DNA of 64,000 nucleotides from a bacterium CG_4_9_14_3_um_filter_65_15 (GTDB taxonomy: Bacteria; Krumholzibacteriota; Krumholzibacteriia; LZORAL124-64-63). The stretch is taken from the NCBI GenBank assembly GCA_002790835.1, contig PFVX01000024.1, positions 7,167-71,166 on the forward strand. The letters run 5' to 3'. The notes beneath the pieces are model-generated. The model saw nothing but the letters and a program-made list of their open reading frames with translations, was not told the DNA's origin and ran no database searches. Position 1 is the stretch's first letter; each line of letters begins with the position of its first letter. The translations under genes and the position numbers were made by a program. Shown in pieces: positions 4,435 through 42,800 of the stretch.

Positions 4435-4454
4435 GGAGGAAGGCACATCCGGCC

Positions 4455-5213: not shown

Positions 5214-5251
5214 ATCGTGTCAGTCGTCACCGACGGCAGGAAAGGACGGCC

Positions 5252-8402: not shown

Positions 8403-8406
8403 AGCT

Positions 8407-9420: not shown

Positions 9421-9473
9421 CCGGGCGGCCGCTGTCCCTGTACCGGCGCCTGCGCCGGCGCGCCTGGTGGCTG

Positions 9474-10376: not shown

Positions 10377-10380
10377 TTTG

Positions 10381-10944
10381 ATGTCGGTGAGGATCTGGCT
10401 GGCTGGACTTTTTGCGGTGGCGCTGGGCATGTCCCTGGCCGGTTGCGGCGACGGGGATGACCAACCTGCGTTGCCGGTCTCCTCGGGGCCTCGACTGGAA
10501 CAGGTCTTCCGAGATCACGTCACCGTCGAGACCGAGAACGGCACGCGCAAATGGGTGCTCAGCAGCGACCAGATGCAGCAGTTCGCGGGCCAGGATGAGG
10601 TGCTGCTCATCGACTTGACCATGGATTTCTACCGGGACGGCGAGCCCTTCTCGACGCTGACCGCCGACAGCGGACGCGCCGATCCGGACAACCGCAACGT
10701 CCACGCCTGGGGCGACGTGGTGGTCGTGACCCGGGACGAGCGGCGCCTGGAAACCGAAGAGCTGTTCTATGACAACCAAACCCAGCTGATCACCAACGAC
10801 GTGTTCGATCGCTATACCTGGAGCGACGGCGAGGCGACGGGAATGGGGATGGAAGCGTCTCCTGATCTCGATTTTTTTGAGATCAAGCAGAGTTTCCAGA
10901 GCGAAATCATGGACCAGGCACCCGATTCCACCGGAGGCGGTTGA
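10381..10944 (+). CDS. lptC: LptC/LptA (OstA-like) family LPS-transport lipoprotein
   Basis: 187 aa; signal peptide with LAGC lipobox ([23 protein letters not shown]), OstA-like beta-jellyroll region. It sits directly upstream of lptB as in the kdsD-kdsC-lptC-lptA-lptB arrangement. No separate lptA is present. Confidence 0.7.
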
Positions 10945-11681
10945 TGGACAACCAGGATCGTTCCCTGCTGGAAGTGACGGGGCTGCGCAAGATCTACCGC
11001 AAACGTGCGGTGGTCGACGGCGTGGACCTGGAACTGCACCAGGGAGAGGTGGTGGGCCTGCTCGGCCCCAACGGTGCCGGCAAGACGACCTCCTTCTACA
11101 TGATCGTGGGGTTCATCACCCCCGACGCCGGTTCGGTGTATCTCGACGGCCAGGATGTCACCTCGCTGCCGATGTACAAGCGTGCCCGTCTGGGTATCGG
11201 CTACCTGCCCCAGGAATCCTCCATCTTCCGCAAACTGACGGTGGAGGAAAACGTCCTGGCAATCCTGGAACAGTTGAAGCTCACCCGCGGTGAGCGCCAG
11301 CACCGCCTGGACGAACTCCTCGAACTCATGGGAGTCCAGCACCTGCGCCAGAGCAGGGGCTACCAGCTTTCGGGTGGCGAACGCCGACGCGTGGAGATCG
11401 CCCGCGCCTTGGTCACCGATCCCAAATTCATGCTCCTCGACGAACCCTTCGCCGGCATCGACCCCATCGCCGTTGCGGATCTCCAGTCCGTGGTCGTCCA
11501 GCTCAAGGAGCGCGGCCTGGGGGTGTTGATCACCGATCACAACGTGCGGGAAACGTTGAGCATCACCGATCGGTCGTATATCCTGTTCGAAGGCAGAATC
11601 GAGCTGGCCGGGACGGCCGAGCAGATCGTGGGTTCGGAAAAGGCTCGGATGCTGTATCTTGGAGATAAGTTCAGACTTTGA
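10944..11681 (+). CDS. lptB: LPS export ABC transporter ATP-binding protein
   Basis: Walker [13 protein letters not shown] signature [15 protein letters not shown], Walker [11 protein letters not shown]; LptB-length at about 245 aa. The ATG at 10944 overlaps the lptC stop. Confidence 0.9.
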
Positions 11682-11732
11682 GGTTTTGCATCACACCGTC
11701 TGCAGCATCGCCGGACGGTCAAAGGATAGACC

Positions 11733-21477: not shown

Positions 21478-22137
21478 TCAGGGAGCGTCGGTCACCGAAA
21501 TATGCAGCGTGTCGCGGCGCACGACCGCCCAGAACGGATAGTTGACGGCCAGGGTCACGTCGTATTCCCCGCTCTCGGTGAACCGGAACCGGGGAGCACG
21601 GCCCGTGAATACAGTTCCGGCCGCATCGTTCATGCGCCATTTGAAGAAGATCTTGGCGTAGTTCCCGGCGTTGTCCGGGTCGATGTCGCAGGATTCGGCG
21701 CGCAGGTCGAACTGGACCGTATCGGCAGTCGTCACGCTCCCGGCCGGGAAGTTGCTGCTGGCTTCGACCAACAGGCTGTCGGCAAGAACCCGGACCGGCA
21801 TGCTGGAACTGGCGGAGTTGCCGTCGGGGTCGGTGGCGGTCACGACCACGTTGAAATCACCGGCATCGGCGTAGGTATTGAAGGCGCGGGAAGTGGTGCC
21901 GATATGGCCGTCCCCGAAATTCCAGGAAATTTCCAGGTTGTTGGTGCCGCCGGTTGCGTTTCCGGTCTCGTTGCCGCCTGAAACCGCAACGTACCCCTCG
22001 ATCTGCAGGGGCATGACCCCGCAGAGGGGGGTGAGCGTCAGCCGGGTGATGGCGGGCTTCGTGTCTTGTTTGCATCCGGAAACAAAGAAAAGGACCAGCA
22101 GGGCTGCCGGTATCAAGAGCAGGCAGAAGCGTTTCAT
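21478..22137 (-). CDS. PKD-domain lipoprotein (secreted, function unknown)
   Basis: MKRFCLLLIPAALLVLFFVSGC is a signal peptide with a lipobox Cys. NFGDG...VVVTATDPDGNS is PKD-domain-like. The track ORF extends to 22290, but the ATG at 22137 with a signal peptide is the likely start. It is the last gene of the lptF-lptG transcription unit. Confidence 0.65.
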   Translation of the reverse strand: MKRFCLLLIPAALLVLFFVSGCKQDTKPAITRLTLTPLCGVMPLQIEGYVAVSGGNETGNATGGTNNLEISWNFGDGHIGTTSRAFNTYADAGDFNVVVTATDPDGNSASSSMPVRVLADSLLVEASSNFPAGSVTTADTVQFDLRAESCDIDPDNAGNYAKIFFKWRMNDAAGTVFTGRAPRFRFTESGEYDVTLAVNYPFWAVVRRDTLHISVTDAP

Positions 22138-22286
22138 GAGTTCGGTATTCTCCCTGTGGGGTGGCGGGAACCCGGAGCCCACCCGGGCACTGCCCGGAAT
22201 GACTCCACCGGCCTGGTCGCATAAGTTTACGTAGCTAGGATAGCCTGCACAAGTCGTCTCGTCAAATCCGGTTAGCAAGGGGTGAA

Positions 22287-23360
22287 TCATCGTCGGGCAC
22301 GACCGAACAGCACCAGGAACAGCCCGAGAAAGAAGACATTCCCGGACCAGGCCGCCAGCAGGGGGGGCACGGCTCCGGTGTGACCCAGACTCTTGCCGAA
22401 ATTCATGAACATGTAGTAGCCGAAACTCACCAGCAGGGTCAGGCCGAACCCCGAGGCGACGGTGGTCTTGCGGGGGCTCGAGGCCAGGATGATCCCCATC
22501 AGTGTCACGATGATGTTCACGAAGGGAAAGGCCAGGTTGAATTGCACGTCAACGATGCTTTTTCGCGGATCGCCGCCCGTTTGGCGGACCAGCCGAATAT
22601 GATCCTGCAACTGCCGGATGGTCATGTCCTCCTGGGGGATCCGGTCGCGGTAGAACCCCTTGGGGTCGATGGTCAGGTCCGAGGCGATCATCTTGTCGAG
22701 ATGGTCGATGGTCTCCTTGTCCTCGCTGAATCGCCGCCGGGTCACTCCCGACAGGCTCCAGGTGGCGCCGGTCCACGTGGCCCGATCGGCGGCGATGATT
22801 TCGGTGACGCGTGACCCCTGCCGGGTCACGATGCGCATCCCCTGCAGGATGCCCGTGTTGGGGTCGAATTTGTGCGCGTAGTACATCCGGCCGTCGGGTC
22901 CGCGCAGGGCGATGTCCCGGGTGGGATTGATGGTGTCGGCCTGTTTGTGGATCTCCACTTCCCAGACCTTGCGTTCCAGGATGTTCGCCCGGGGCAGGAC
23001 GTATTCGTGCCAGCTGAGGGAAAACCCGGTCAGCAGGATCGCCCCGATCAGCAGGGGACGGGCGACCTGCATCAGCGAGCATCCCGCCGCCATCAGGGCG
23101 GTCAGTTCCAGGTAGCGGGCCATGGAGCCGATGGTGAACAGGACCGACATCAAAACGGCGATGGGCATGACCGTGTCGACGATCCAGGCGCCCTTGTACA
23201 GGTAATAGCGCAGGACCATGGAGGCGGTGGCGGAGTTGTCCACGAAGCTGCCCATGTGATCCAGCAGGTCCATGATGGTGAACAGGAGCAGGGCACCCAG
23301 CAGCGTGTAGAGCAGGTTGCGCAGGAAGGAGCTCAAAAGATAACGGTGAATGATCGTCAT
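22287..23360 (-). CDS. lptG: LPS export ABC transporter permease (LptF/LptG, YjgP/YjgQ family)
   Basis: 357 aa; the N-terminal MTIIHRYLLSSFLRNLL is the classic LptF/G start. Topology is six TMs with a periplasmic beta-jellyroll insert. The F versus G assignment is by gene order only. Confidence 0.75.
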   Translation of the reverse strand: MTIIHRYLLSSFLRNLLYTLLGALLLFTIMDLLDHMGSFVDNSATASMVLRYYLYKGAWIVDTVMPIAVLMSVLFTIGSMARYLELTALMAAGCSLMQVARPLLIGAILLTGFSLSWHEYVLPRANILERKVWEVEIHKQADTINPTRDIALRGPDGRMYYAHKFDPNTGILQGMRIVTRQGSRVTEIIAADRATWTGATWSLSGVTRRRFSEDKETIDHLDKMIASDLTIDPKGFYRDRIPQEDMTIRQLQDHIRLVRQTGGDPRKSIVDVQFNLAFPFVNIIVTLMGIILASSPRKTTVASGFGLTLLVSFGYYMFMNFGKSLGHTGAVPPLLAAWSGNVFFLGLFLVLFGRARR

Positions 23361-24773
23361 GCGGTGGAGCCTCGGTCCGACACGGTGGCAGAGGGCTTCA
23401 CCCGGGGTTTGTGCGTGACGCTCAGGATGCTGGATTCCTTGACGGTGCGCATGAAGACCGGGATGCCCACGGCCAGCAGGAAGAAGTTGGCGCTCCACAT
23501 GGCCAGGAACGGGTCCAGACGGCCCCGATCCGCCATCTTTTCACCTCCGACCAGGAAAAGATAATATACCAGGAAAACCCCGATGGCCAAAGAGACGCTC
23601 ACTCCCCGGCCGCTGCGGCTGGAGGAAACGGCCATGGGCACGCCCAGGAGGGTGAACACCATGCAGGCAAAGGGAATGGCGAACTTCTTGTGGAATTCCA
23701 CCAGGTAGCGGTTCGCCTTGACGACGTACGAATCCAGCACGCGCTCCTGGAAACTGCATTGCTCGGCCGTGCGCTGGACCTTGGTCCTGGTTTCCCGGAA
23801 GCGTTCGGCCATGGCCAATTCGCGGCGGTCCGGCTCGAGTGAGATCCTGCCGCCCAGGACCAGGTCACGTTTTTTTGGCTGGAGCAGGTTCCACTCCCAG
23901 TTGAGGAAGCTGCCGGTGAACTCGGAGATCCGGCTGTGGATGTCCGCCTGACGAACTCTTTCCTTGTCGGCCGCCTGCAAGAGCTCCCCGAGGTCCATCT
24001 CCCGGTCGCCCTTGGCCTTGCGGTCGGTTTTCTGCATGTCCTGTTCGGCGTTGCCGATCGTCCGTGTCAGCTGGGAGAACCTGATGACCTGGTACTTGGC
24101 GGGATCCTCGGCGTCCTGTTGCTCGTGGGTTTCCCCGTTGTGGAGGTTGAGGATCAGGGCGTTGTCCTCATGGTCGTTGATGACGGTGCCCCATTCGGCG
24201 AAGGTCATGCGGGGGGAAATGTCCCCGGGATCTTCCTTCTCGATGATGGTGACGTCCTCGATCCGCCCGGTCTTGTCGTCCTTGGTCGCGACGAAGATGG
24301 TCAACTTGTCGTTGAGATCGTTGAATTGCTGGGGCTGGATTTCCAGCATGGGTCGTTTCTGGCTGATATCGCGCAGGAGGTTGGCCAGGGTGTGGTTCAT
24401 GTCCGGGAAAACGAAGTGGTTATAGGCCGTCATGGCCACCGTGATCACCGCGGCGGTGGCCAGCAGGGGGCGCAATACCGACCACAAGCTGATACCGCTG
24501 GCCTTCATGGCTGTAATTTCGTTGTCGGCAGCAAGTTGACCGACCCCCATCAAGACCCCGACGAGCACCGACATTGGTATGGATAATGCAAACGTGTGGG
24601 GAAGGCTCAGCAGCAGCACCTCTGTGGCGATGGGAAATGCTACCCCTTTGGTGACAAAGAGATCGACATAGTTGAACAGGGTATCTATCATCAGCAAGAA
24701 TGTGATGACCGAGAGCCCGAAGAAGAAGGGGCCGCGGCAGGTGAGGATCAAGTGCTTGTTTAGCAAGCGCATA
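23357..24773 (-). CDS. lptF: LPS export ABC transporter permease (LptF/LptG, YjgP/YjgQ family) with an enlarged periplasmic domain
   Basis: 472 aa; MRLLNKHLILTCRGPFFFGLSVITFLLM is the LptF/G N-terminus, and the C-terminal TMs are present. It overlaps the downstream paralogue by 4 bp. Confidence 0.75.
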
Positions 24774-24989
24774 TGAGCTTCGAGACCTTCCCCGGATCCG
24801 CCACTCCATCCATCTGGACGGTCCCCGGTATTCCTGCTGTGTTGACCCGGAGCCCTGCCCGCGTGCCGCGCCGGTGCTCCCATCCGGTTCACGTTACCGT
24901 GGCCGGTCTTCCCCGAGGGGGCGGCCGGGATGGGAAACCCTGATCGCACCCGGAGTCAGAATGACCATTTCCGGGGACGAATTCAAGTT

Positions 24990-27900
24990 ATGATCCGGCC
25001 CCATTCCCCCACCGGCCGCGGGCCAGGGAGTGTCCAGGTGAATCCGCGCCCGCCCAGCAGAGCTCCGCGGCAGTCGACAGGCCCAAGGTGGTACCTGGGC
25101 CTTTTGCTGTTGCTGGGAGTGTTGTGGGGGACTGCGGACAGGGCCCTGGCCGATCCAAACTACGAGGGGCCGCTTCTCTACGGTCTCGATCCGGTGATCC
25201 GGTCCACCGACAACCCGCGGTTGCTGGGAGTCGACCGTCTGTTGCTCCTGCGCAGGATGAAGTCCCTCGGTATCGACCCCCAGCGAACCGGGATTACCCG
25301 ACCCACCCTGGAAAGTTCCCTGCGCCGCGTGTGGGACGACCGTTCCCGGGTCGACCTCCAGCGTCGGGAAACCGTGCTGGAATACAACGGCCTCTTCGGG
25401 CTGATGTTCGAGTTCCGCTATCCGACCTTCATGTTCTTCTACCAGGAGGCGGTGGCCCTTCCCGGCGGTCTCACCTACTATCCGCCGCGCCCCGTGCGGG
25501 ATCCCGCGGTTCAGGTCTTCGTTGACGATCTCCACCAGGGCATGATGCGGCGCCAGACGGTGGATCGTCGGCTGACCCGGATGGATGACCTGGCCGTGGC
25601 GGGCAAGGGACGTCAGAACGGACAGAACGACGGCCTGATCAACCTGACCATCCCCATCAAGCTGCCCCACACCCTGGAAAAGATCATCGGCCGGGGGGAG
25701 AAGACCCGCATCAAGATCAGCGGTCGCGAACACTTCGCCCTCAACGGCGAGAGCACGGTGATCAAACCCTTCGTGGGCAACGAACGCATGTCCAACCAGT
25801 CGCTGTTCCCCTCGCTGGACATGAAGCAGGAACTGCAGATCAACCTGTCGGGAACCATCGGCGAGAAGATCATCATCGAGGTCGACCACAACAGCGAGGC
25901 CATCGGGCCCGAGGCCACCAAGATCAAACTGATGTACCAGGGGCTCGAGGACGAGGTCATCAAGACCATCGAGACCGGCGACGTGGGGCTGACCCTGCCG
26001 GGGAGCCAGTTGCTGGGTTACAGCTCCAACAAGTCGGGCCTGTTCGGCTTCAAGGTCACCGGTCAGGTGGGCCGGACCGACTTCACCTTCGTGACCTCCA
26101 AGCAGAAGTCCCAGTCCTCGTCCAAGACCTTCAACGCCAAGGGAGGCCAGGAGGAAGACCGGATCATCAACGCCTCCGACTACCTTAACAACCGCTTCTT
26201 CAAGCTGGATCTGCCGGATAGCGAACCCCAGGGTCGCCGGCAGGGGGAGACCATCGTTTACGGATCCGTGAAGATCTTCAAGTGGCTGGGAACCGGGATT
26301 CGCGGCGAGGGAGAAGTCGCCGTGGCGGCTTATTTCGACAGCTTGGGTGTTCATGCCTGGGACAGCATCGATTTCGGCCATCCGGAGCCCATCACCGAGG
26401 TCGGACCACGCTGGCAGGAAATCACGGATTTTGAAGCCTTGCTGGATGCTGCGGGAAGCCTGATCGCCATCGACATGGGCCGAAGCTATCTGGATGAAGA
26501 CGTGCTGGCGGTGATCTATGACGTTGTCGACGGGAATGGCGTCATCACCTCGGTGGGCGACAAACCCGGTGTGGATGAACCGGTTCAGGAGTTGCCCAAT
26601 GATGAGGGAACATTCTATCGGATGAAATTGCTCAAGGTCCCCCACAACAAGAGCAATTCCCGGCTGTTCAATTACGTCCTGCGGAACATCTACCCCCTGG
26701 GCGGGTCGAATATCGACGCCTCGACCTTCGATCTGCGCATCGAATACGAAAAACCCGGTTTGGACCAACCCCAGCAGGATGTGAACGGGCTGGATTTCTT
26801 CCGCATCTTCGGCCTGGACCAGGAAAACGCCCAGGGAGAGCCGGGGCACGACAACGTCGTGGACTTTCACGACCCGTACCTGTTCGACCTGGAACGGGGA
26901 CTGCTCAAGTTCCCCCTGGATTTCCCCACCCCCTTCGCCGCGGACAGCACCCAGTACGAGGCCTATGCCGACGACTCGGAGAAATTCAAATGGGAAACCA
27001 GCACCCTCAAGGATAACCTGGCGCCCGAATTCTACAACTACGACAAGACCATCCCACCCTCCCGCTTTGGGGAATACAGCCGCTTCCACTTCGTGGTCCA
27101 CCACGCTTCGGCCAGCAGCAACATCAGCCTGGGCACCTCCAGCATCGAGGAAGGCAGCGAGAGCGTGGTCGTCAACGGGCGCACCCTGACCCGCGGCACC
27201 GACTATTCCATCGACTACACCTTCGGCGAGATCCAGCTCCTGGGCGACGCGGCCAACCTGACTCCGGACAGCCAGATCTCGGTGAACTACCAGTACGCGC
27301 CCTTCATCGGCGGGGGCAAGACCAGTCTCACCGGCCTCAACCTGGGCTACGACCTGGGACGCAACGCCAAGATGTCCACAACCTGGCTCTACCAGAGCGA
27401 GGCGATCGTGGGGGAGAAGGCCAAGCTGGGCGAGGAGCCCAGCCATACCCTGGTGGGGAACGTCAACCTCAACACCACCCTCAAACCCTATCTGCTGACC
27501 CACGTGGCCAATTTCCTGAGTCGGCACGATTCCGACCGCGAGAGTTCCATCCAGCTCTCCGGTGAAATGGCCGTCAGCCTGCCCAACCCCAACACCAAGG
27601 GCCAGGCCTATCTGGAGGACTTCGAGGGCGTCGATTCCTCCAACTACGTCTCCCTGACGCGGGCGTCCTGGTCCTGGGCCAGCGTGCCCTTCCTGGGCGA
27701 AGCCTACCAGGACACCTCCCTGGATTTCCGCACTTTCGCGCCGGAGAAACGGGTCACCACCCGCTGGTTCCTGCCCCGGGACCGGGTGCTGCGCCGCTAC
27801 CTGAATCCCAACCTGATCAAGGAGGAGCGGGACGACACCCAGCAGGTCATGGACCTCTATCTGCGGGCCGACGAGGGTTGGGAAGGCGATAACTGGGGCG

Positions 27901-30900
27901 GGATCATGCGGGGCATCAGCCGCACGGGTCTGGACCTTTCCAAATCCCAGTTCGTGGAGATCTGGGTCAACGACGGGATCCCCGAAAAGGAATTCCGTTC
28001 CGGTCGCCTGCACATCGACTTCGGGTACATCAACGAGGACGGCTTCTGGACCCGGGATCTCGACAGCAGCCTGGTCATCGGCAATTTTGATCAGGAGGAT
28101 GGCATCACTTATAAACCGGGCCCTCCCCCCACGGGCACTCCCCCCGACGGCATATTTTCCGCGGGTGACGAGGATATCGGCCTGGACGGCCAAGGGGAGA
28201 ACGGGCCCCAGGGCTACAGCGCGGAATATGAGATCGGCGGCGATTCGCCTTTCCCTCGTATCAACGGCACCGCCCGCAACAGCCGCGAGGACACCGAGGA
28301 TCTGAACCGCAACGCGCGGATGGATCGCAACGACGGGTATTTCACCACCGTTATCGACCTCCAGGATACCCCGGCTCTGATCGACGTGGATTACGACTTC
28401 GATTCCGCTGACGTGGCTGAACTCAAGGACCAGAACATCGCCTGGCGCAAGTACCGCATTCCCCTCGGAGCGGTGGACAAGGTGTCTGTCGGGTCCACCG
28501 CGGACATCCGATCCATCACCCACGCCCGGATCTGGTACGAGAACGATACGCAGGAAGCTCCCGATGCCGTGCGCCTCCAGCTGTCGGACTTCAAATTCCT
28601 GGGCAGCCGCTGGGAACGCGAAGGCGTGCGCCGGATCAGCGACGAGGCGCTGCTGGACGACATCGAGCGCCGGGGCGCCCAGTTCTTCCTGGGAGAGGTC
28701 AACAACAAGGAGAATCCCGACTACGTCCCGCCCTTCGCCGTGCACGAGATCAACAGCATCCCGGAAAAGGAACAGGCCCTGGTGCTGGATTTCGACGACC
28801 TGCAGCGGGGACAGATGATCCGGACCAGCAAGGTGGTCTCCCCCCGGGGAGACGACTACACCTTCTACAAGGATCTGTCCTGGTACTTCTCCAACCCCTC
28901 CCAGCAGAATGTTGACCTGGATCTTTTCTTCCGCGTGGGGTCGGACTCGCTGAATTTCTACGAGGTCAACTACCGCTTCGCCCAATCGACCTTCAAGGTG
29001 GGCTGGCAGCAGTTCACGGTGAACCTGGCCGAACTTTCCAACATCAAGAACGGCGAGATCGACATCGAGGGCGTGGCCCACGGAGAGGTCCCCGATGTCA
29101 ACACCGGCGAACTCTATTCCGCCCGCGTCGTCGGCCGGCCGGACCTGCGCCACATCAGGCGCTACTACTTCGGAGTGATGAACCAGGTCCTCAGCGAGGG
29201 AGCGCAGGGCTATTTCTACTTCAACGATGTCCGATTGCTGGACGTGAAGAAGGAATCGGGCATGGCCCAGAGGGCCGGTGTGCGTCTGAACATGGCCGAC
29301 ATCATCAAGGTGGATTTCGACTGGAAGCACACGGACTCCGAATTCCACGGCCTGGATGAACGCGCCGGTTCGGGGGTGGATTTTCGGGACTGGAATGTGG
29401 CCACGAATTTCAAGGTCGATGATTTCGTGCCCTTGCTGGGGTTCCAGCTTCCGGTGAACCTGAGCCGTCGCCGCACCGTCAACCGCCCGAAGTACGAGGT
29501 GAACAGCGACATCGAGATTCTCGAGGCATCCACGGCCGATGCCATGTCCACCATCGATGCCCAGGAGCGGTTCTCCACCCGTCTGCGCCACCCGCCGAGC
29601 AAGGCCGTCCTCGCCCGCTACCTAGTGGACCCCTGGACCCTTCAGGTCAGCGGATCGCGCACGACCTACGACGGCCCTCTGGCCGAAAGGCGGGGGAAGA
29701 GCCTGCAGGGCTCACTCAACTACGACCTGCGGATCAGCGGGCGCCACAGCCTGGGCGACTACCCGGTGCTGGCCTCCGTGCCCTTGTTGCGGGGGCTGTC
29801 ACTGGTGCCCACCAAGGTGACCCTGGGGGCCAACTTCACCAACCGTTGGAACGCCACCACGACTCTCAACGAAGACGGCGTGGTGACCCAGCGTTCCCAG
29901 TCGCAGAGCCGGCCGGGGGTTCTCAGCGCCAACCTGGACTACAATCCCTCCCTGATCCTCGATCTCACCTTGGCGGCGAAATCGGACCGGGACCTCCTGC
30001 GCGAAAAGCGGGCCTTCGGAGTCAACGTCGGCGAGGAGAATCAACGCAGTTACGATATGCGCATGACCGTCAAGACTCCTCGCGCCAAGGATCTGCCCGA
30101 CGGCCCCCTGTTCATGCCCCTGCGGTCGGCGGCCCGCTTGGCCAACAAGCTGCGGCCCTCGGTCCAGTTCAACGGCAAATTCGTCGACCAGCACGGCCCC
30201 GGGGTGCGCCAGACCGCGGGTCAGACCAATGTGCGCAACATCAACAATTCGGGGAATTGGGACTTCCGATTCGATGTGCCTCTCGGCGACTGGGTCAAGA
30301 GCGTATTCCCGGAACACCGCGTAACGAGCCAGGAGAGGCAACGGTTGATCAACGAGCAGCGTCGCCTGGAAAAGCGTGCGCTCCGGCAGGGTGGGTCCCC
30401 TCCCGGTCAAGGCCAACCCGAACAGGATATCGACGAGTCCGGATTGACCCCCGAGGAACGTCAGCGCCGGGAAGAAGAGCGGCTCCTGGAAGGGGCGCAA
30501 CAGCGGCAAGAGGAGGAGGCTGACCAGGGCTTGGCCGAGCCGGAGGAAGCTCCGCCCCCGACGGAGGGCGAGCGCCTCAGCCCCATGATTCTCATCAACC
30601 CTTTCCTGGATCTGCTGCGGGGCACCGCGCCGGTGAAGATCTCCACTTCGCGGCAACAGAACAGCACCTACAGCCAGTTGCGGACCGGAGCCCCCTTCTG
30701 GTACCAGACGGGTATTGAAAATGTTCTGGATGCGGCCGACAGCCTGTATGCCTCCAGGAGCTACCAGGACCGCAAGACGCTCAATCTCTCGAGCAGTTCG
30801 AAAATCACGCGGAACATCGGCTTGGACACCAAGTACACCGTCACCAGGTCGGTGCGGGATCAGGTCGGCAGCACGACCCGGAACAAGCAGGTCGATTGGC

Positions 30901-31514
30901 CGGACTTTTCCCTATCGGTCAGCGGTCTGGAGAAATGGGGGGTTTTCGGGGGCATCGCCAGCGACCCCAATGCGGGCAGGTTCCGTTCCGCGAACTTCAA
31001 TATCAGCTACAAGAAATCCGAAACGGTGAACAACTACACCGATACCTATTACAACCCCACCGTCAACAAGGTGATTTCGCCCCGCCTGACCTTCAATTTC
31101 CGGAGTGGTTTGTCGGCAACGGCCAATGCCACGGTGACCAGCAACGATGCTCAGTCCAACGGTGTGTTGACGTCCCTGCGCCGCCAACGCATCGGCTTGC
31201 AACTGAGGCACCAGTTCCGGGCCCAGAGGCTGCTGGCGAAACTGGGGCTGTACCGGCCCGGAAACAATCCCTCCATCACCATGGATGTGGATATCTCCTA
31301 TCAGCGCTCCCGCACCGAACGTTTCACTCCGGGTAGCGTGGTTTCCGCCCCCACGGGCCAGTCCAGTATCAGCCTGCGCCCCCGCTTCAGTTATCAGATT
31401 TCCCGGAGTCTCAGCGGCGCCTTCAACATGGGTTTTTCGAAGTCCAAGGATATCGCCACCGACCGGACAACGACTTCTCTCGGCATGGGAGTGGAGATGA
31501 CCTTTGTATTCTAG
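24990..31514 (+). CDS. sprA: T9SS outer-membrane translocon SprA/Sov (giant beta-barrel, 'cell surface protein SprA')
   Basis: Size is about 2,175 aa (SprA-like). It has an N-terminal signal peptide (RWYLGLLLLLGVLWGTADRALA), a long beta-rich sequence with G/T/S/N/Y periodicity, and a C-terminal aromatic residue (…GMGVEMTFVF) typical of OM barrels. The N-terminal region resembles the SprA N-domain (..SGTIGEKI.IEVDHNS..). The start is uncertain between 24930 and about 25035. Confidence 0.7.
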   Translation: MIRPHSPTGRGPGSVQVNPRPPSRAPRQSTGPRWYLGLLLLLGVLWGTADRALADPNYEGPLLYGLDPVIRSTDNPRLLGVDRLLLLRRMKSLGIDPQRTGITRPTLESSLRRVWDDRSRVDLQRRETVLEYNGLFGLMFEFRYPTFMFFYQEAVALPGGLTYYPPRPVRDPAVQVFVDDLHQGMMRRQTVDRRLTRMDDLAVAGKGRQNGQNDGLINLTIPIKLPHTLEKIIGRGEKTRIKISGREHFALNGESTVIKPFVGNERMSNQSLFPSLDMKQELQINLSGTIGEKIIIEVDHNSEAIGPEATKIKLMYQGLEDEVIKTIETGDVGLTLPGSQLLGYSSNKSGLFGFKVTGQVGRTDFTFVTSKQKSQSSSKTFNAKGGQEEDRIINASDYLNNRFFKLDLPDSEPQGRRQGETIVYGSVKIFKWLGTGIRGEGEVAVAAYFDSLGVHAWDSIDFGHPEPITEVGPRWQEITDFEALLDAAGSLIAIDMGRSYLDEDVLAVIYDVVDGNGVITSVGDKPGVDEPVQELPNDEGTFYRMKLLKVPHNKSNSRLFNYVLRNIYPLGGSNIDASTFDLRIEYEKPGLDQPQQDVNGLDFFRIFGLDQENAQGEPGHDNVVDFHDPYLFDLERGLLKFPLDFPTPFAADSTQYEAYADDSEKFKWETSTLKDNLAPEFYNYDKTIPPSRFGEYSRFHFVVHHASASSNISLGTSSIEEGSESVVVNGRTLTRGTDYSIDYTFGEIQLLGDAANLTPDSQISVNYQYAPFIGGGKTSLTGLNLGYDLGRNAKMSTTWLYQSEAIVGEKAKLGEEPSHTLVGNVNLNTTLKPYLLTHVANFLSRHDSDRESSIQLSGEMAVSLPNPNTKGQAYLEDFEGVDSSNYVSLTRASWSWASVPFLGEAYQDTSLDFRTFAPEKRVTTRWFLPRDRVLRRYLNPNLIKEERDDTQQVMDLYLRADEGWEGDNWGGIMRGISRTGLDLSKSQFVEIWVNDGIPEKEFRSGRLHIDFGYINEDGFWTRDLDSSLVIGNFDQEDGITYKPGPPPTGTPPDGIFSAGDEDIGLDGQGENGPQGYSAEYEIGGDSPFPRINGTARNSREDTEDLNRNARMDRNDGYFTTVIDLQDTPALIDVDYDFDSADVAELKDQNIAWRKYRIPLGAVDKVSVGSTADIRSITHARIWYENDTQEAPDAVRLQLSDFKFLGSRWEREGVRRISDEALLDDIERRGAQFFLGEVNNKENPDYVPPFAVHEINSIPEKEQALVLDFDDLQRGQMIRTSKVVSPRGDDYTFYKDLSWYFSNPSQQNVDLDLFFRVGSDSLNFYEVNYRFAQSTFKVGWQQFTVNLAELSNIKNGEIDIEGVAHGEVPDVNTGELYSARVVGRPDLRHIRRYYFGVMNQVLSEGAQGYFYFNDVRLLDVKKESGMAQRAGVRLNMADIIKVDFDWKHTDSEFHGLDERAGSGVDFRDWNVATNFKVDDFVPLLGFQLPVNLSRRRTVNRPKYEVNSDIEILEASTADAMSTIDAQERFSTRLRHPPSKAVLARYLVDPWTLQVSGSRTTYDGPLAERRGKSLQGSLNYDLRISGRHSLGDYPVLASVPLLRGLSLVPTKVTLGANFTNRWNATTTLNEDGVVTQRSQSQSRPGVLSANLDYNPSLILDLTLAAKSDRDLLREKRAFGVNVGEENQRSYDMRMTVKTPRAKDLPDGPLFMPLRSAARLANKLRPSVQFNGKFVDQHGPGVRQTAGQTNVRNINNSGNWDFRFDVPLGDWVKSVFPEHRVTSQERQRLINEQRRLEKRALRQGGSPPGQGQPEQDIDESGLTPEERQRREEERLLEGAQQRQEEEADQGLAEPEEAPPPTEGERLSPMILINPFLDLLRGTAPVKISTSRQQNSTYSQLRTGAPFWYQTGIENVLDAADSLYASRSYQDRKTLNLSSSSKITRNIGLDTKYTVTRSVRDQVGSTTRNKQVDWPDFSLSVSGLEKWGVFGGIASDPNAGRFRSANFNISYKKSETVNNYTDTYYNPTVNKVISPRLTFNFRSGLSATANATVTSNDAQSNGVLTSLRRQRIGLQLRHQFRAQRLLAKLGLYRPGNNPSITMDVDISYQRSRTERFTPGSVVSAPTGQSSISLRPRFSYQISRSLSGAFNMGFSKSKDIATDRTTTSLGMGVEMTFVF

Positions 31515-32463
31515 ATTGCGAACCTGGATCTGCAGGGCCCTGGTCGGTTTGATCGGGGTGGCCTTTGCATGGTCGACTTTCGCCTACGCGACGTCGGACA
31601 GCGGGGCGGTTCCCGTATTTTCCGGGAAACGCGCCATGGAACTCGTTCATCTCCAGTGCGACCTGGGTCCGCGGGTGCCGGGATCGCCGGCCAACCGCGC
31701 CCTGCAGGACACCATCCTGGCTCATGCGGAGGAATTGGGGTTCGAGGCTCGACGGGGTTGTTTCCGCGCCACGAATCCCCTGACCGGCGAAGAGATGGAT
31801 GTCTGCAATTTCGTGGTCATCCTGCCGGGCACGGGAGCCGGGCCTTCCCTGTGGTTGGGGGTCCACTTCGATTCCCGACCCCTGGCCGACCAGGACCCCG
31901 ATCCCCGGATCCGGACTCAGCCCGTCCCCGGGGCCAACGACGGCGCCAGCGGTGTGGCCGTCCTGTGGCACCTCATGGAAATGGCGGGGGCCAGCCCTCC
32001 GGCGCGCACCGTCGTGTTGATGTTCCTGGACGGCGAAGACTCCGGCCGGGAAGGGGATCCGGAGAGCTTCTGCCTGGGCAGCGCGCACCTGGCGGCCGGG
32101 TGGGGTGGGTTCAATAGTCTGTTGCCTGCCGCGAGGCCCGAGGGTGTGATCATCCTGGATATGGTGGGCGATGCCGATCTGGAAATCACCCAGGAATCCC
32201 TATCCTTGAAGTATGCGCCGGGTTGGACCTCACGGGTGTTCGAGAGGGCCGCCGCGCTTGGTCTGCCGGCGTTCCAGGCGCGCGGTGGTCGGGCTGTTTT
32301 CGATGACCACATTCCGTTTTTGCGCCGCGGCCTTCCCGCGGTGGATCTCATCGATTTCGACTACTCGCCCTGGCATACCGGCGGGGATGTTCCGAGTGCC
32401 TGCAGCGCTGGGAGTCTCGCTCAATCGGGCGCCCTGCTCACGGACCTGATCTACAATCCGTAA
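31504..32463 (+). CDS. Glutaminyl-peptide cyclotransferase-like protein (M28-fold, mono-zinc QC type), membrane-anchored
   Basis: HFDSR...PGANDGASGVAVL...FLDGEDSG matches the M28 zinc-site layout, but with N-D where aminopeptidases carry D-D, as in animal-type/Bacteroidetes glutaminyl cyclases. It has an N-terminal hydrophobic anchor. The TTG start at 31504 or 31516 overlaps or abuts the sprA stop. Confidence 0.65.
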   Translation: MYSRLRTWICRALVGLIGVAFAWSTFAYATSDSGAVPVFSGKRAMELVHLQCDLGPRVPGSPANRALQDTILAHAEELGFEARRGCFRATNPLTGEEMDVCNFVVILPGTGAGPSLWLGVHFDSRPLADQDPDPRIRTQPVPGANDGASGVAVLWHLMEMAGASPPARTVVLMFLDGEDSGREGDPESFCLGSAHLAAGWGGFNSLLPAARPEGVIILDMVGDADLEITQESLSLKYAPGWTSRVFERAAALGLPAFQARGGRAVFDDHIPFLRRGLPAVDLIDFDYSPWHTGGDVPSACSAGSLAQSGALLTDLIYNP

Positions 32464-32570: not shown

Positions 32571-33107
32571 ATGATCACCACCTGCACGGAGTGCCAGGCT
32601 CGTTATCAACTGGAGGACCAGAAGGTTCCCCGCCGTGTCATCAAGGTCCGCTGCCCTGACTGCAGCGGTATCTTCTCTCTGGATGGGACCGCTCGCGCCG
32701 AGGCGGAAGCTCCCCTGGTGGTCGAGCACGGAGGGCGCGATTTGACGCCGCAGCCGGTTGCTCCCGCGCCCCAGCTGTCCGGGGAACCCGTTCGGGCCCA
32801 GGCTCCGTCTGCCGGGGTTGCCGTCCTGGAAGAAACCGGCGTCGCCCCCGCAGCGAGTCGTGGCCGCCGCCGCCGCAGCAAGGAAGAGATGTACGCCCGC
32901 GCCCTGGTGTCGGATATCCTCGTCTACAACCGGGATGCCCGCGACCAGGCCCTCAAGGACGGGACCCTGGTCGAAGCCCTGGGGCAGGAGATCAAGAAGA
33001 GCTGGGAACTCTACAAGGAAAAGGTCACCCCGGAGGTGGCCAACGGCACCGATCATTTCAAGAAAGCCCTCAACGAGATCCTGGCCGAGGGCGCCGAGCT
33101 GTTCTGA
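32571..33107 (+). CDS. MJ0042-family zinc-ribbon protein with a C-terminal helical domain (function unknown)
   Basis: MITTCTECQARYQLEDQKVPRRVIKVRCPDCSGIF carries two CxxC pairs in the MJ0042-type zinc-finger layout. It is followed by a Pro/Ala-rich linker and a conserved-looking C-terminal EEMYARALVSDILVYNRDARDQALKDG... domain. ATG 32571 with RBS aaggagcaggga; the track ORF starts upstream at 32481. Confidence 0.6.
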   Translation: MITTCTECQARYQLEDQKVPRRVIKVRCPDCSGIFSLDGTARAEAEAPLVVEHGGRDLTPQPVAPAPQLSGEPVRAQAPSAGVAVLEETGVAPAASRGRRRRSKEEMYARALVSDILVYNRDARDQALKDGTLVEALGQEIKKSWELYKEKVTPEVANGTDHFKKALNEILAEGAELF

Positions 33108-33186
33108 TCCCGGGCGCCCCGACTTCGAGGCGTCCCTGTCCATGGCGAGACCCGGTCCTCGACCGGGTCTCCGCTTTTTGGGTTTT

Positions 33187-33630
33187 CTAGGACCCACCCC
33201 ATTTATCCCGACTGATCTCCTCGAGAATATCGTCGATCTGCTGCCTCACCCGGACGTTCTGGTCGGGTTCGAAGAGGGCTTGCTTGACCCTGCCCTGATC
33301 GTCCTTCTTCACGTAGCGCAGGCTCTGGAGGTCGGCCATGGACATGAGGATGTCCTTGCTGACCCGGACCTCGACCGGATGGCCCTCCTGGTTGAGGCGG
33401 GGATTGTTGAAGGGATGCATGCCGTTCCCCCAGCCGTGGACGACCATGGAGCAGAGCAGGGCGCGGAAGGTATTCTGGCCCTGCACGGTTTCCAGGTCGA
33501 AACTGCCCCCGACCTTCGCGATGACGCTGTCGATGACTGCGCACAATTTTGCCGCCAGTTGGGGTTCCACGTCCATCTGCAACAGTCGCGAAAACATGGT
33601 GTTGAGGATCTTGTCGGTGTTGGTGGACAT
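33187..33630 (-). CDS. Hypothetical protein (147 aa), divergently transcribed from the MglA-like gene
   Basis: The ORF MSTNTDKILNTMFSRLLQMD... starts at 33630 with a good RBS (gggag, 7-nt spacing). It is a soluble protein with no recognisable family. The track's longer versions (33753 start) lack an RBS. Confidence 0.5.
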   Translation of the reverse strand: MSTNTDKILNTMFSRLLQMDVEPQLAAKLCAVIDSVIAKVGGSFDLETVQGQNTFRALLCSMVVHGWGNGMHPFNNPRLNQEGHPVEVRVSKDILMSMADLQSLRYVKKDDQGRVKQALFEPDQNVRVRQQIDDILEEISRDKWGGS

Positions 33631-33892
33631 CTTGGAACTCCCGATCCTGTGCGGTCCTGTCGTTTCCCGTATGGGGGGGGATTGTCCCGAAATCCCCCAT
33701 CGGGGAGCATTGCGCCCGATTTCCGGGGAGGGTGTTGCAAATTGCTTGCCCAATCCGGTCGTACCCCCCGAATTCCCTTGAGTTTGTCAATACACCGGAA
33801 AATTTTCCATGGCATACCGATTGCACCCAAGGGGTGATCATGCCGCTGACCGTTCCTTTTGCCGGGGGTTGGATCCCGGAGGAGAGCTGCCC

Positions 33893-34720
33893 ATGTCGGT
33901 TCAGAATTTGACCGCCACCGCCTGCTGCCGTCTTCTGTATTACGGCCAGGCCGGAGTGGGCAAACGGGAGAATCTGCGGCTGATCCACCAGTTCGTGCCA
34001 CCGGAATCGCGCCTGTCGATCGCGGTGGAGGATCCCGAACGTCAGATCGGCTTCAACCTGCCCCAGCCGGGACAATCGTCGCGCCAGGTCCTGGTGCAGG
34101 CAGTGGATGTGGGGAAGGAGCGTTATCACGCCGCCGGGATGACGTCGCGGTTGCCCTTCGACGGCGTGGTCTTCGTCATCAACTCCGGAGTTTCCCAACT
34201 CGACCAATCGCTGGCCGCCTTCGAATCCCTCAAGATGTTCCTGGATTCGTGGGGGATGGACCTCATGCGGATCCCGGTGGTCCTTCAGTACAACCGCACC
34301 GGAAGTAACGAGGAAACGATCCCCGTGGATCGGCTGGAGAGCCTGCTCAATCCTTGGGGACTGCTCTCCTTCCCCGCCGCCACATTGCGCGGCGAAGGGG
34401 TCCGTGAAACCCTCAAGGCCGTCCTCGGCTTGGCGGTCAAGCACCAGGAGGAGCAGGCCGTCATGATGCCCAATTTCAACCCCCGGCACTCCGAGGCCCC
34501 ACCGGCGGAACCGGAGCCTCCGACGGAATCGAAGCTGCAACTGGAGTACGGCCCGGCGTTACCCGGCGCCGAGATGGAGGAATCCACCCGTCTGCGCAGT
34601 GAGCAGATCTTCAACGACCTGCGCCCTCCGCTGGTGATCCCGGTCAAGATTCCCCGTCGTCTGGTCAGCGGCCTCAAGGGACCGCTACGGGTCTTCCTGG
34701 AAATCGAATTCGAGGATTAG
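33893..34720 (+). CDS. MglA-like Ras-family small GTPase with degenerate nucleotide-binding motifs and an about 90-aa Pro/Glu-rich C-terminal extension
   Basis: Block-wise similarity to Myxococcus MglA: CCRLLYYGQAGVGKRENLRLI vs KIVYYGPGLCGKTTNLQYI; PFDGVVFVINSG vs GVDGVVFVADSQ; IPVVLQYNRTGS vs IPYVIQYNKRDL; GEGVRETLKAVLGLAV vs GVGVFDTLKAVAKLVL. The P-loop Ser/Thr is Arg, the switch-II Gln is Lys, and NKxD is NRTG. ATG 33893 with RBS ggaggagag. Confidence 0.7.
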   Translation: MSVQNLTATACCRLLYYGQAGVGKRENLRLIHQFVPPESRLSIAVEDPERQIGFNLPQPGQSSRQVLVQAVDVGKERYHAAGMTSRLPFDGVVFVINSGVSQLDQSLAAFESLKMFLDSWGMDLMRIPVVLQYNRTGSNEETIPVDRLESLLNPWGLLSFPAATLRGEGVRETLKAVLGLAVKHQEEQAVMMPNFNPRHSEAPPAEPEPPTESKLQLEYGPALPGAEMEESTRLRSEQIFNDLRPPLVIPVKIPRRLVSGLKGPLRVFLEIEFED

Positions 34721-34755
34721 CCGCCTGACTGTTGACCTGTTTGCGATCCTACCCT

Positions 34756-35637
34756 ATGGTCCCGACCATGGACACTCCAAGCACGACATCAGGGAAATCC
34801 GCCATCGGGCCGGATACCTTGGCGGACCAGCTGGCCGCCGGGCTCCGCCTGGAACGAGAGGGCCGGTGCGCGGCCGCCCTCGATCTTTACCACCACCTCC
34901 TGAGCGACCACCCCGACGAATGCCGCCTGCATTATCGGGCCGGCTGCGCGGCGCTCAAGATGGGTGAAGCCGCAACGGCCCAATCCTTTTTCCAGACCGC
35001 GGTGGCGCAGGATCCCGACAATCCCCGCTACCTGACGAATCTCGGGGTGGCTCTCGATCGCCTGGGCCGGCGCGAGGACGCCGTGAGGCTCTACAAACGG
35101 ACGGCCATGCTGGATGGGGGCACCGTGGTGGCTCACCATAATTTGGGTGCGATCTATGCCGAACAGGGGCGCATGGACGAAGCCTTGCGTTCGTTCCGGG
35201 CCGCCATCGCCCTGGAACCGGACGCCGAGGGCTATCACAACCTGGGACTCGTCCACTTCCGGGTCGATGATTTCGTTGCCGCCCTGGAGAATTTCCGCAA
35301 CGCCGTGGCGTGTGACTCCGGCTACGCGGTGGGCCACTATTACGTTGGCCTGTGCCTGATGAAAACGGGGAACTACATCGCCGCCATGGAAGCTTTCCAT
35401 AGAGCCTGGGGCCTGGATTCACGCCTCGCGCGGGTTCCCTACCACCTGGGATGCTGCCTGCACAAGCTGCAGCGGCATGAGGAGGCCCGCAGCCGCCTCG
35501 AACAGGCCCTGGACGCCTTCCCCGAGGATGGCCGTCTCCACTACCAGCTGGCCCTGACCTGTGACGCCTTGGGATTGCACCCCGAAGCCCGGATTCACTA
35601 CGGCATGGCCACGGGACGCAACAACCCCAACGAATGA
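34756..35637 (+). CDS. Tetratricopeptide-repeat (TPR) protein
   Basis: About 290 aa with at least six TPR units (e.g. AHHNLGAIYAEQGRMDEALRSFRAAIALEPD; GHYYVGLCLMKTGNYIAAMEAFHRAW). It lies immediately downstream of the MglA-like gene. Start is uncertain (TTG 34732, ATG 34756 or ATG 34768). Confidence 0.7.
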   Translation: MVPTMDTPSTTSGKSAIGPDTLADQLAAGLRLEREGRCAAALDLYHHLLSDHPDECRLHYRAGCAALKMGEAATAQSFFQTAVAQDPDNPRYLTNLGVALDRLGRREDAVRLYKRTAMLDGGTVVAHHNLGAIYAEQGRMDEALRSFRAAIALEPDAEGYHNLGLVHFRVDDFVAALENFRNAVACDSGYAVGHYYVGLCLMKTGNYIAAMEAFHRAWGLDSRLARVPYHLGCCLHKLQRHEEARSRLEQALDAFPEDGRLHYQLALTCDALGLHPEARIHYGMATGRNNPNE

Positions 35638-35675: not shown

Positions 35676-36464
35676 GTGCCCGAGTTTCTCAACATGCTTA
35701 TCCTGGCGGTAGTCCAGGGGTTGACCGAGTTCCTGCCCGTCAGCAGTTCCGGTCATCTCGTCCTGCTCCAGCATTTCCTGGGAACCCGGGAAGGCGATGT
35801 GTTCTTCGATGTCGTCCTGCATGGAGGCACCCTGTTTTCGATTCTCGCGGTGTACCGCAGGGAACTGGTCCGGCTGCTGAAACTCGATTCCGATTCACTC
35901 CGGTACATTCTGGCCCTCGGCTTGGCGACGGTGCCGGCGGTGGTGGTGGGTCTGCTGGCGCAGGATACCATCGATCGCCTGTTCGGCGCCCCACGTCTGG
36001 CCAGCCTGGGCCTGATCTTCACGGGGTTGGTGCTGCTTTCCACCCGTCTGGTCCACGGGGCCGGGGGGGGCGACGCTGGCGAATGGAAACCCCGGCCGGT
36101 GGCACCGCTTCAGGCCCTGTTGATCGGATGCGCCCAGGCCCTGGCCATATGTCCGGGAATCAGCCGCTCGGGTTCGACCATCGCGGCATCCCTGTGGCTC
36201 GGATTGCCACGGACGGAGGCCACCCGCTTCAGCTTCCTGATGGCCATCCCGGCCATCGCCGGCGCGGTCGTCTTGAATCTGGTCAAGGGTGGCGGGGCCG
36301 ATAGTGTGGGGGGCGGGTTCCTGCTGGCTGCCGCCGTGGTTTCCTTCGGGGTGGGGCTGTTGGCTATCCGTTTGACGGCTCTGGCGGTGGTCCGGGCGCA
36401 TTTCTGGAAGTTCAGCTTCTACTGCCTCGCCGTGGGAGCGGTGGCCTGGATCGTCCTGTCCTGA
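35676..36464 (+). CDS. uppP: Undecaprenyl-diphosphate phosphatase
   Basis: VQGLTEFLPVSSSGHLVL is the N-terminal UppP/BacA signature; 262 aa, polytopic; a second conserved motif PGISRSGSTI is present. GTG start. Confidence 0.9.
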   Translation: MPEFLNMLILAVVQGLTEFLPVSSSGHLVLLQHFLGTREGDVFFDVVLHGGTLFSILAVYRRELVRLLKLDSDSLRYILALGLATVPAVVVGLLAQDTIDRLFGAPRLASLGLIFTGLVLLSTRLVHGAGGGDAGEWKPRPVAPLQALLIGCAQALAICPGISRSGSTIAASLWLGLPRTEATRFSFLMAIPAIAGAVVLNLVKGGGADSVGGGFLLAAAVVSFGVGLLAIRLTALAVVRAHFWKFSFYCLAVGAVAWIVLS

Positions 36465-42599: not shown

Positions 42600-42800
42600 G
42601 GCCTTTTCCGTTGCCCATTATTCAACCAGGACGGTGTTGGCGTATCTGCCCCACCGGCCTGGGGTGGGCGCCAACGACATTGCAAGGATAATACAACCTC
42701 TTGCCGTGTAAGGCAATATGAGTCCGGCGGGGAGTGGTCAACTCTGGCATCGCCCTTGCAAATCCAGCCCCGGCTTGCATCACCCAACCAGGAGACGACC

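Follow-up and report, generated by a model that had tools for sequence, protein, structure and literature searches.

The long open reading frame (ORF) at positions 24990–31514 on the forward strand of the 64,000-nucleotide stretch analysed here (the window; contig PFVX01000024.1) is, to judge from its sequence and a predicted structure, an orthologue of SprA/Sov, the outer-membrane translocon belonging to the T9SS (type IX secretion system). The value of the locus lies not in sprA itself but in its gene context: translation of a predicted glutaminyl cyclase (QC) appears to be coupled to that of sprA, the gene is paired head-to-head with the lipopolysaccharide (LPS) export genes lptF and lptG, and a putative cis-element private to this pair lies between them. 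These three features are new and, as sequence comparison goes, well supported, and they offer two testable leads that the model organisms do not. We consider it likely that the locus as a whole is best explained by a SprA orthologue that forms an operon with the QC gene, shares a regulatory region with lptFG and has its motor genes elsewhere in the genome.

The protein scores 503.8 bits (E 1.1e-150, in four stretches) against TIGR04189, the NCBIfam equivalog model of the T9SS outer membrane translocon Sov/SprA, whose cutoff is 200 bits. A Pfam scan of the window's ORFs adds SprA_N (PF14349; 66.6 bits, cutoff 27), and across the NCBIfam and Pfam scans the SprA models alone match the ORF. The only family matched in a single-sequence search of all PDB sequences (phmmer) is that of Flavobacterium johnsoniae SprA (FjSprA; 6h3i_A, 137 bits), and a profile built from 12 clade members matches 6h3i_A at 222 bits, with 3us9 as the sole other match, a borderline one (E 7.5e-4). 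The profile segments are collinear: residues 250–407, 436–883, 948–1499 and 1985–2137 of the query correspond to residues 168–323, 412–886, 985–1623 and 2217–2381 of FjSprA, the last of them weakly.

An AlphaFold (AF2) model of residues 1000–2174, computed with 67 homologues as the alignment, has a mean predicted local distance difference test (pLDDT) of 81.2 and about 35 long beta-strands. When this model is compared with the PDB by Foldseek, the FjSprA chains 8gl6, 8gl8, 6h3i and 6h3j are returned at E values from 6.7e-39 to 5.3e-30, and the next-best matches (SlpA, MtrB and TonB-dependent transporters) at 4e-6 or worse. The first-pass annotation had read the ORF as a SprA/Sov-type translocon and had proposed the TIGR04189 search as a check; both the search and the fold bear this reading out. 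Within the beta-barrel region there is also a highly charged helical insert, conserved in the clade, at about residues 1780–1877 (window ~30327–30620). It contains …EQRRLEKRALRQ…LTPEERQRREEERLLEGAQQRQEEE…, is modelled as low-confidence helices (pLDDT <50 at model residues 801–819 and 850–864) and falls within the portion of about residues 1500–1985 that cannot be aligned to FjSprA.

The ORF runs unbroken on the plus strand from ATG codons at 24930 and 24990 to the stop at 31514. Public gene calls give 24990–31514, or 2,174 aa from the ATG at 24990, in agreement with the single ORF of about 2,175 aa first described; they are identical on six metagenome contigs, the longest of which (ENA ERZ27293362 k141_269755) measures 102 kb. 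The GC content at the three codon positions of sprA is 0.60/0.43/0.83, and a third-position value of 0.83 is typical of genuine genes in the window. The overall GC content, first given as 65%, is slightly lower when measured, with a window mean of ~0.64 and 0.61–0.62 around sprA. Both termini carry the features reported for them at first, a signal peptide and a C-terminal Phe. The N-terminus, read by eye, shows a signal peptide ...WYLGLLLLLGVLWGTADRALA|DPNYEG (...ADRALA|DPNYEG), the sequence ahead of the cleavage at DPNYEG being ...GVLWGTADRALA|DPNYEG, and the C-terminus reads ...MTFVF*, its terminal Phe representing the aromatic beta-signal of outer membrane proteins (OMPs); ATFVF is kept in 54 of 62 relatives.

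Immediately after sprA comes a gene that the first-pass annotation lacked, a type II (M28-fold) glutaminyl cyclase-like gene of 319 aa at 31504–32463 on the plus strand (Peptidase_M28, 80.5 bits). The top 41 of its 42 matches in the PDB are QCs or reannotated bacteroidal QCs; the best is 6qql of Porphyromonas gingivalis (1.2e-35), followed by 7cje, 6qro and 4fuu/7d1d and then by the animal QCs (human ~1e-8), and the sole true aminopeptidase among the matches, YwaD, has an E value of 4e-3. Of these bacteroidal entries, 3tc8 and 4fuu have been reannotated as QCs (PMC7948796). The sequence contains the motifs GANDGASG (with its Asp), DGEDSG (with a Glu-Asp pair), ILDMVG, DDHIPFLRRG and PWHT, and in 58 orthologues the key residues of GANDGxSG, D-x-E-D-x-G, DDHxPF and W-H-T show a conservation of at least 95%. 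In the P. gingivalis enzyme (PgQC) the corresponding roles are those of a zinc-binding Asp, a Glu-Asp pair with the Asp ligand specific to bacteroidal enzymes, and a Trp-His that separates QCs from aminopeptidases (PMC7948796). All 58 orthologues have an N-terminal signal or anchor, consisting of an n-region, an h-region and an Ala-rich end, which may be cleaved or stay on as an anchor, and no conserved lipobox Cys is found among them. By prediction, the gene after sprA encodes a periplasmic enzyme of the QC type that has its catalytic motifs intact and is provided with a signal for export.

The two genes overlap in a way that appears to be under selection. The QC gene starts with a TTG (31504–31506) within the last 11 nt of sprA, preceded by the ribosome-binding site GGAG (31493–31496), so that the entire initiation site (31493–31506, plus strand) lies within the sprA codons V-E-M-T-F-V-F*. 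The start codon stands at the identical −11 position in 56 of 62 loci, where it is made by the Phe-Val codons of SprA (TTT-GTN giving TTG). The Phe at −3 is encoded by TTT in all 54 F-V contexts, against 12.5% of the Phe codons elsewhere in sprA (149/1,192), and the terminal Phe of the gene is TTC in 60 of 61; the neighbouring synonymous sites at the end of sprA (Val, Thr and the stop) are free to vary. Two genomes have TAT-GTA, which yields an ATG at the same −11 position. Five others, in which the Val is replaced by Thr or Asn, use TTC, and their QC genes start 8–17 nt past the sprA stop. A GGAG(G) encoded in the ...E-A/M-T... codons lies 6–7 nt 5' of every overlapping start (56/56). The TTT bias, the ATG variant and the embedded GGAG(G) therefore argue that selection maintains the overlapping QC start inside sprA, and that QC would be co-translated with SprA across the phylum.

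The adjacency of sprA and QC extends to sister and deeper clades, in which the identity of SprA falls to ~41% and ~30% and the downstream genes differ (rimP-nusA-infB). The sister-clade M28 proteins are 40–41% identical to the QC of the window (E 1e-62 to 1e-66) and have the same motifs. At two Gemmatimonadota-labelled loci no QC gene follows sprA; a 284-aa gene in that position at one of them was considered as a cryptic QC and shows no similarity.

On its other side sprA is divergent from two genes for LPS export ATP-binding cassette permeases, lptF (23357–24772, minus strand, 471 aa) and lptG (22287–23360, minus strand, 357 aa), which overlap by 4 nt. Both match Pfam LptF_LptG. LptF scores 235.7 bits against TIGR04407 (cutoff 230), and LptG scores 214.4 bits against TIGR04408, just under the cutoff of 240 and yet its best family (E 1.6e-63, full-length, 3–354/1–350). 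The divergent arrangement had been pointed out in the first-pass annotation, and it proves to be real and strongly conserved across related loci. In a scan of genomes (one per GTDB species) that yielded 77 loci, tblastn places the PKD-domain gene, lptG and lptF, all on the minus strand, directly upstream of and divergent from sprA wherever the flank suffices. The lptG-lptF<>sprA head-to-head arrangement is also present in the sister clades and the Gemmatimonadota-labelled loci (together L085–L089). At the two loci of the latter kind, SprA is 90% identical to a protein that NCBI labels Gemmatimonadota, and both outer flanks differ (a sulfatase and UPF0182 upstream; HHH, NYN and obg downstream). 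In the literature we found nothing that links SprA with LptF/LptG or describes a head-to-head lptFG/sprA arrangement. LptF itself exceeds the TIGR04407 model (347 positions) by ~100 aa and matches it in two stretches, suggesting an insertion, probably in the periplasmic domain; it is similarly long (424–513 aa) in the sister and Gemmatimonadota-labelled loci.

Between lptF and sprA the alignment of relatives reveals a non-coding element at 24941–24982 (plus strand), with ~26 conserved nucleotides, the core TGACCATTTCCGGGGACG at 24962–24979 and the consensus tGgcc..cc.GGGG.CAG..TGACCATTTTCG.GGACG. Among the closest relatives it is almost invariant despite scrambled flanks. Of ~72 loci, 66 have the core TGAC[CT]NNTTTCGNGGAC, in every case oriented like sprA, and the element is unique in the 64-kb window and in each 18-kb locus. 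In the closer subclade it precedes the ribosome-binding site of sprA by ~60–80 nt; in the more distant one it keeps a fixed distance of 42–44 nt to the start codon of lptF. The frame in which it stands to sprA is random (22, 17 and 19 loci in frames 0, 1 and 2), which argues that it is non-coding. An N-terminal extension of SprA ('...DHFRGR...', with wobble-like variation) was rejected on this ground, as stops also intervene. A structured RNA or riboswitch was rejected likewise, since a search of Rfam at E ≤10 returns nothing credible and RNAalifold predicts 0 pairs from 30 sequences. As to known promoters in the intergenic region, there is no TGGCAC-N5-TTGC for sigma-54, and the only sigma-70-like match falls inside lptF. 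A wider regulon was also considered: among the matches listed in an exact-pattern scan of metagenomes, the 11 with the extended upstream consensus all lie between lptF and sprA (11/11), and the other 69 are unrelated chance matches. The element is most likely a putative protein-binding site, for a regulator or an alternative sigma factor, that is private to the lptF<>sprA pair.

The same alignment bears on the start of sprA. Relatives share a block ACAAGGAGTGTC-N5-8-start, located ~70–80 nt past the element, whose counterpart in the window is AGGGAG at 25025–25030, followed after 7 nt by a GTG at 25038–25040 (25025–25040, plus strand). Because this Shine–Dalgarno sequence and GTG are in register with the block of the relatives, the true start is probably the GTG at 25038 rather than the ATG at 24990, giving a product of ~2,158 aa. 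The lptF–sprA intergenic region would therefore measure ~265 bp. The control region of 216 bp first described is accordingly a real divergent gap (217 bp to the ATG at 24990), but probably a longer one.

These observations can be combined in a single scheme. SprA would be synthesised with a signal peptide for Sec and, keeping the C-terminal aromatic beta-signal, would enter the outer membrane, where, by homology, it would form a 36-strand, laterally gated translocon as in F. johnsoniae and pass folded proteins tagged with a C-terminal domain (CTD) from the periplasm outward. sprA would be the first cistron of a two-gene operon, and ribosomes that finish it may re-initiate at the overlapping TTG, such that the periplasmic zinc glutaminyl cyclase would be made alongside the pore. 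The operon would be transcribed away from lptF-lptG, from a common intergenic region with one unstructured element, and this element might bind a regulator or an alternative sigma factor that co-ordinates the synthesis of the translocon with the export of LPS. The motor and ring genes (gldKLMN), porV and the others presumably occupy other parts of the genome, as is the case in Bacteroidota.

The head-to-head pair and its private element suggest co-ordination of translocon synthesis with LPS export, which is plausible because T9SS cargo is anchored to LPS in Porphyromonas (P. gingivalis, for example PMC8545088). Pyroglutamate capping is described for secreted proteins (PMC5837995, PMC10653852), and either cargo anchoring to LPS or such capping may plausibly be the functional reason for the links. 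It is tempting to go further and to regard sprA as the core of a conserved envelope module, coupled to QC and co-regulated with lptFG through one cis-element, in which the cyclase would cap T9SS cargo, or proteins that partner SprA, at the N-terminus. This extension is rather doubtful and we offer it tentatively. If it were true, with the cyclase acting on or docking at the translocon and LPS export tuned to the pore, T9SS, the Q-rule and LPS transport would for the first time be joined by a mechanism. That high Q-values go together with T9SS was called a 'striking phylogenetic coincidence' in 2018 by the authors of the Q-rule, who left it unexplained and found no mechanistic link in P. gingivalis (PMC5837995); a QC start that is kept inside the last codons of sprA reopens the question of a link between pyroglutamate and type IX secretion.

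Several points weigh against this reading. About residues 1500–1985 of SprA are not alignable to FjSprA by sequence profile, and the template modelling (TM) scores between the model and FjSprA are low (0.35–0.37), because half of the barrel modelled alone cannot close. No other T9SS component and no CTD-bearing cargo is found in the window or in ~70 kb of the contig, and a complete T9SS in the Krumholzibacteriota organism is assumed. No promoter consensus is recognised in the lptF–sprA intergenic region, which makes the role given to the element a guess. The secreted proteins of the window are mostly not Gln-first: one or two of ~7, with cleavage sites read by eye, fit the Q-rule, a count too small for a conclusion. 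The metK-lptGF-sprA-QC stretch is syntenic throughout the phylum, and part of the conservation of the linkage may therefore be inheritance. The QC and sov genes of P. gingivalis, moreover, are not known to be neighbours. Experiments in P. gingivalis argued against a role of pyroglutamate formation in T9SS targeting, and the Q-rule was reported to be specific to Bacteroidetes and 'not the entire FCB group' (both in PMC5837995).

It is possible, if on balance unlikely, that the linkages are historical, that is, that sprA, QC and lptFG are neighbours only through intact inheritance and have no functional tie beyond the envelope. The negative P. gingivalis experiments would fit such a view, as would the absence of partners at other loci: in Flavobacteriia the neighbours of sprA are ruvA and gcvH, lptFG and QC both being absent from its vicinity, and the Gemmatimonadota-labelled loci are without the QC gene. 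The region is also syntenic in general, metK and a nucleoside triphosphate (NTP)-transferase gene being kept beside lptG across the phylum and its sister clades. However, the overlapping start appears to be under specific selection (TTT in 54/54, the ATG variant, GGAGG in 56/56), and coupling would then be maintained rather than merely tolerated. Moreover, lptGF<>sprA survives changes of both flanks, with rimP-nusA-infB in place of Zn-ribbon/MglA downstream and sulfatase/UPF0182 in place of PKD/metK upstream, and between the two operons there is a conserved element of their own.

Alternatively, the SprA-fold barrel might act outside a canonical T9SS, for instance as an outer-membrane translocon in its own right or as a factor in envelope biogenesis that is linked with the export of LPS, which would explain why its gene is found with lptFG and the gene of a periplasmic enzyme and not with gld/por genes. 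The absence of gldK/L/M/N, porV and Plug nearby, noted in the first-pass annotation, is confirmed: neither these nor porU are found among the genes of the window or at contig positions 12.6–77.9 kb (~70 kb). A 720-aa TPR protein was considered as SprE/PorW, and unknown proteins of 275 and 147 aa as PorV/PorP-like, and none of them matches a T9SS family; the PKD-domain protein after lptG has no match to a T9SS CTD family. The constant partners of sprA are instead lptF/lptG and QC, the gene borders a long cluster for LPS and 3-deoxy-D-manno-octulosonic acid (Kdo) synthesis (kdsB, kdsA, kdsC, kdsD, a lipid A acyltransferase gene, lptC and lptB), and the distal third of the protein diverges from FjSprA and contains the charged insert. 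We nonetheless regard this alternative as improbable. The T9SS genes of Bacteroidota are scattered too, with sprA alone there, and little can therefore be read from the absence of partners nearby; the score reaches 2.5 times the equivalog cutoff, and reviews list T9SS core genes in several non-Bacteroidota phyla of the Fibrobacterota–Chlorobiota–Bacteroidota (FCB) superphylum, including Gemmatimonadetes (PMC11285876). That the ORF encodes some other giant OMP or periplasm-spanning protein (TamB/AsmA-like or an autotransporter, the cases that the first-pass annotation had named as refuting its reading, or LptD-like) that is SprA-like merely in composition has a negligible probability, as nothing but size and beta-rich composition speaks for it and only SprA families match by sequence and fold, with Foldseek splitting FjSprA (E ≤5e-30) from the remaining barrels (E ≥4e-6).

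The SprA orthologue, encoded on a metagenome-assembled contig of Candidatus Krumholzibacteriota, belongs to a lineage of the kind anticipated in the first-pass annotation, a less-studied T9SS lineage outside Bacteroidota in a candidate phylum of the FCB group. Its full-length relatives, 45–92% identical, are all proteins from metagenome-assembled genomes, and for many the name given by NCBI is 'cell surface protein SprA' or 'T9SS outer membrane translocon Sov/SprA', with Candidatus Krumholzibacteria/-ota as the source, which is an FCB-group candidate phylum. Nearly all of the 77 loci are labelled Krumholzibacteriia/-ota or have placeholder names. Many (L013, L015, L023, L032 and others) are labelled 'uncultured Fibrobacteraceae', and single ones 'Latescibacterota' or 'Gemmatimonadales' (also L053, L061); the sprA region of such genomes is fully syntenic with that of Krumholzibacteriia-labelled genomes, which suggests that these labels are placeholders or wrong. 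Compared with a library of representatives at 50% identity, the conserved core of SprA finds 2,008 relatives at E ≤1e-3 and 788 clusters at E ≤1e-30; SprA is thus a large family, of which the Krumholzibacteriota clade is one branch. The gene itself is not new, since annotation pipelines already recognise it and the phylum lies within the accepted range of T9SS, which reviews confine to the FCB superphylum (PMC11285876). A search of the open-access literature for Krumholzibacter* together with T9SS or type IX secretion found none that links them.

The wider neighbourhood is one of envelope biogenesis. At the left edge of the window are gltD-like, folE and trxB-like genes. Upstream of sprA, in one direction, lie kdsB, pyrG, kdsA, a kdsC-like hydrolase gene, kdsD, a lipid A acyltransferase gene, lptC, lptB, rpoN, hpf and hprK, followed by genes for EIIA-man, IIB-sorb, IIC, IID, HPr, EI and a sugar-nucleotidyl transferase, and by metK. 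The LPS/Kdo cluster (4380–13160) is co-directional and runs into rpoN-hpf-hprK, and the gene calls show no lptA between lptC and lptB; along with bacA (35676–36464) and lptFG, the cluster places sprA in an envelope-biogenesis setting. The first-pass annotation had described a Proteobacteria-style HprK/PTS-Ntr and rpoN organisation. The rpoN, hpf and hprK genes are indeed present, and for the rpoN neighbourhood the impression is a fair one, but the phosphotransferase system (PTS) is a mannose-family sugar PTS (PF03610 EIIA-man, PF03830 PTSIIB_sorb, PF03609 EII-Sor, PF03613 EIID-AGA) with HPr and EI and not PTS-Ntr. Ribosomal proteins L21/L27, which had been named as phylogenetic markers on this contig, are encoded in none of the gene calls that cover the window.

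The PKD-domain protein after lptG (21478–22290, minus strand; PF18911/PF00801) is probably a lipoprotein with its real start at MKRF... (~22137) and the lipobox LFFVSG|C; the called start adds 51 implausible residues. Its conservation is confined to the Krumholzibacteriota loci: by tblastn it follows lptG in all loci with sufficient flank from L007 to L083, whereas the sister clades lack it and it is absent in L085, L086 and L088. Downstream of sprA are QC, a Zn-ribbon protein, a 147-aa unknown, an MglA-like GTPase, a TPR protein, bacA, a response regulator and DUF4139, and then the 720-aa TPR protein, a sigma-70 factor and housekeeping genes (dsbD, valS, uvrB, nadC, birA, coaX, groES/EL and others).

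Four of these genes, at 32571–35637, form a block that resembles a small GTPase module of the polarity or motility type: an MJ0042-type Zn-ribbon protein with a weak N-terminal match to GltJ (32571–33107), the 147-aa protein with no family or PDB match (33187–33630, minus strand), a 275-aa MglA-like Ras-family GTPase (33893–34720; PDB MglA, E 1.4e-14) with a C-terminal extension of ~90 aa, and a TPR protein (34756–35637). Among the Krumholzibacteriota loci, only the closer half have the block; its most conserved gene is that of the 147-aa protein, which is 79–89% identical where SprA is only 45–69%. The best sigma-54-type −24/−12 matches of the window, with one mismatch each, are TGGCATACCGATTGCA at 33810–33825 (+) and TGGCATCGCCCTTGCA at 42745–42760 (+). 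Both are intergenic and just 5' of plus-strand genes, those of the MglA-like GTPase (33893) and of a 218-aa secreted unknown (42801), and they are leads only, the number of such matches in the window being no higher than chance.

Compared with known systems, the translocon of the window falls in the same curated family (TIGR04189) as FjSprA (Fjoh_1653; 6H3I/6H3J/8GL6/8GL8) and P. gingivalis Sov. It is of the same length class as FjSprA (2,174 versus 2,403 aa), collinear homology extends from the conserved region at the N-terminus as far as the C-terminal strands, and the distal halves are alike in fold; each of the two proteins starts with a Sec signal peptide, and in both cases the gene stands apart from gldKLMN. 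It differs from FjSprA in its low identity (137 bits by phmmer, 14–15% in structural alignment), its clade-specific charged helical insert at residues ~1780–1877 and the stretch of residues ~1500–1985 that sequence does not align. The context differs as well: unlike in Krumholzibacteriota, the two flavobacterial genomes examined (two FjSprA-seeded matches on Mb-scale contigs) have ruvA-sprA-gcvH, with neither lptFG nor QC nearby. In both assemblies the gene calls break sprA into two to four neighbouring pieces (L090, GCA_000801625.1, 9627–16862; L091, 10001–17265), probably as a result of frameshifts or assembly errors in a 7-kb gene, which is why the FjSprA-seeded search gave only fragments.

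The cyclase is closest to the bacteroidal QCs (PgQC 6QQL, TfQC 6QRO, BtQC 4FUU/7D1D; E 1e-35), which are likewise extracytoplasmic and with which it has in common a ligand pattern for a single zinc, including the Asp of the E-D pair that is specific to bacteroidal enzymes, DDHIPF, and the Trp-His motif that sets QCs apart from M28 aminopeptidases (PMC7948796). Unlike PgQC, a lipoprotein anchored by Cys21, the Krumholzibacteriota orthologues are without a conserved lipobox. Finally, the upstream genes resemble the E. coli-type cluster kdsD-kdsC-lptC-lptA-lptB-rpoN-hpf-ptsN-rapZ-npr in their kds/lpt-rpoN-hpf run, and differ from it in two respects: hprK is followed by a complete mannose-family PTS with HPr and EI rather than by EIIA-Ntr/NPr, and lptF-lptG stand apart from the cluster, head-to-head with sprA.

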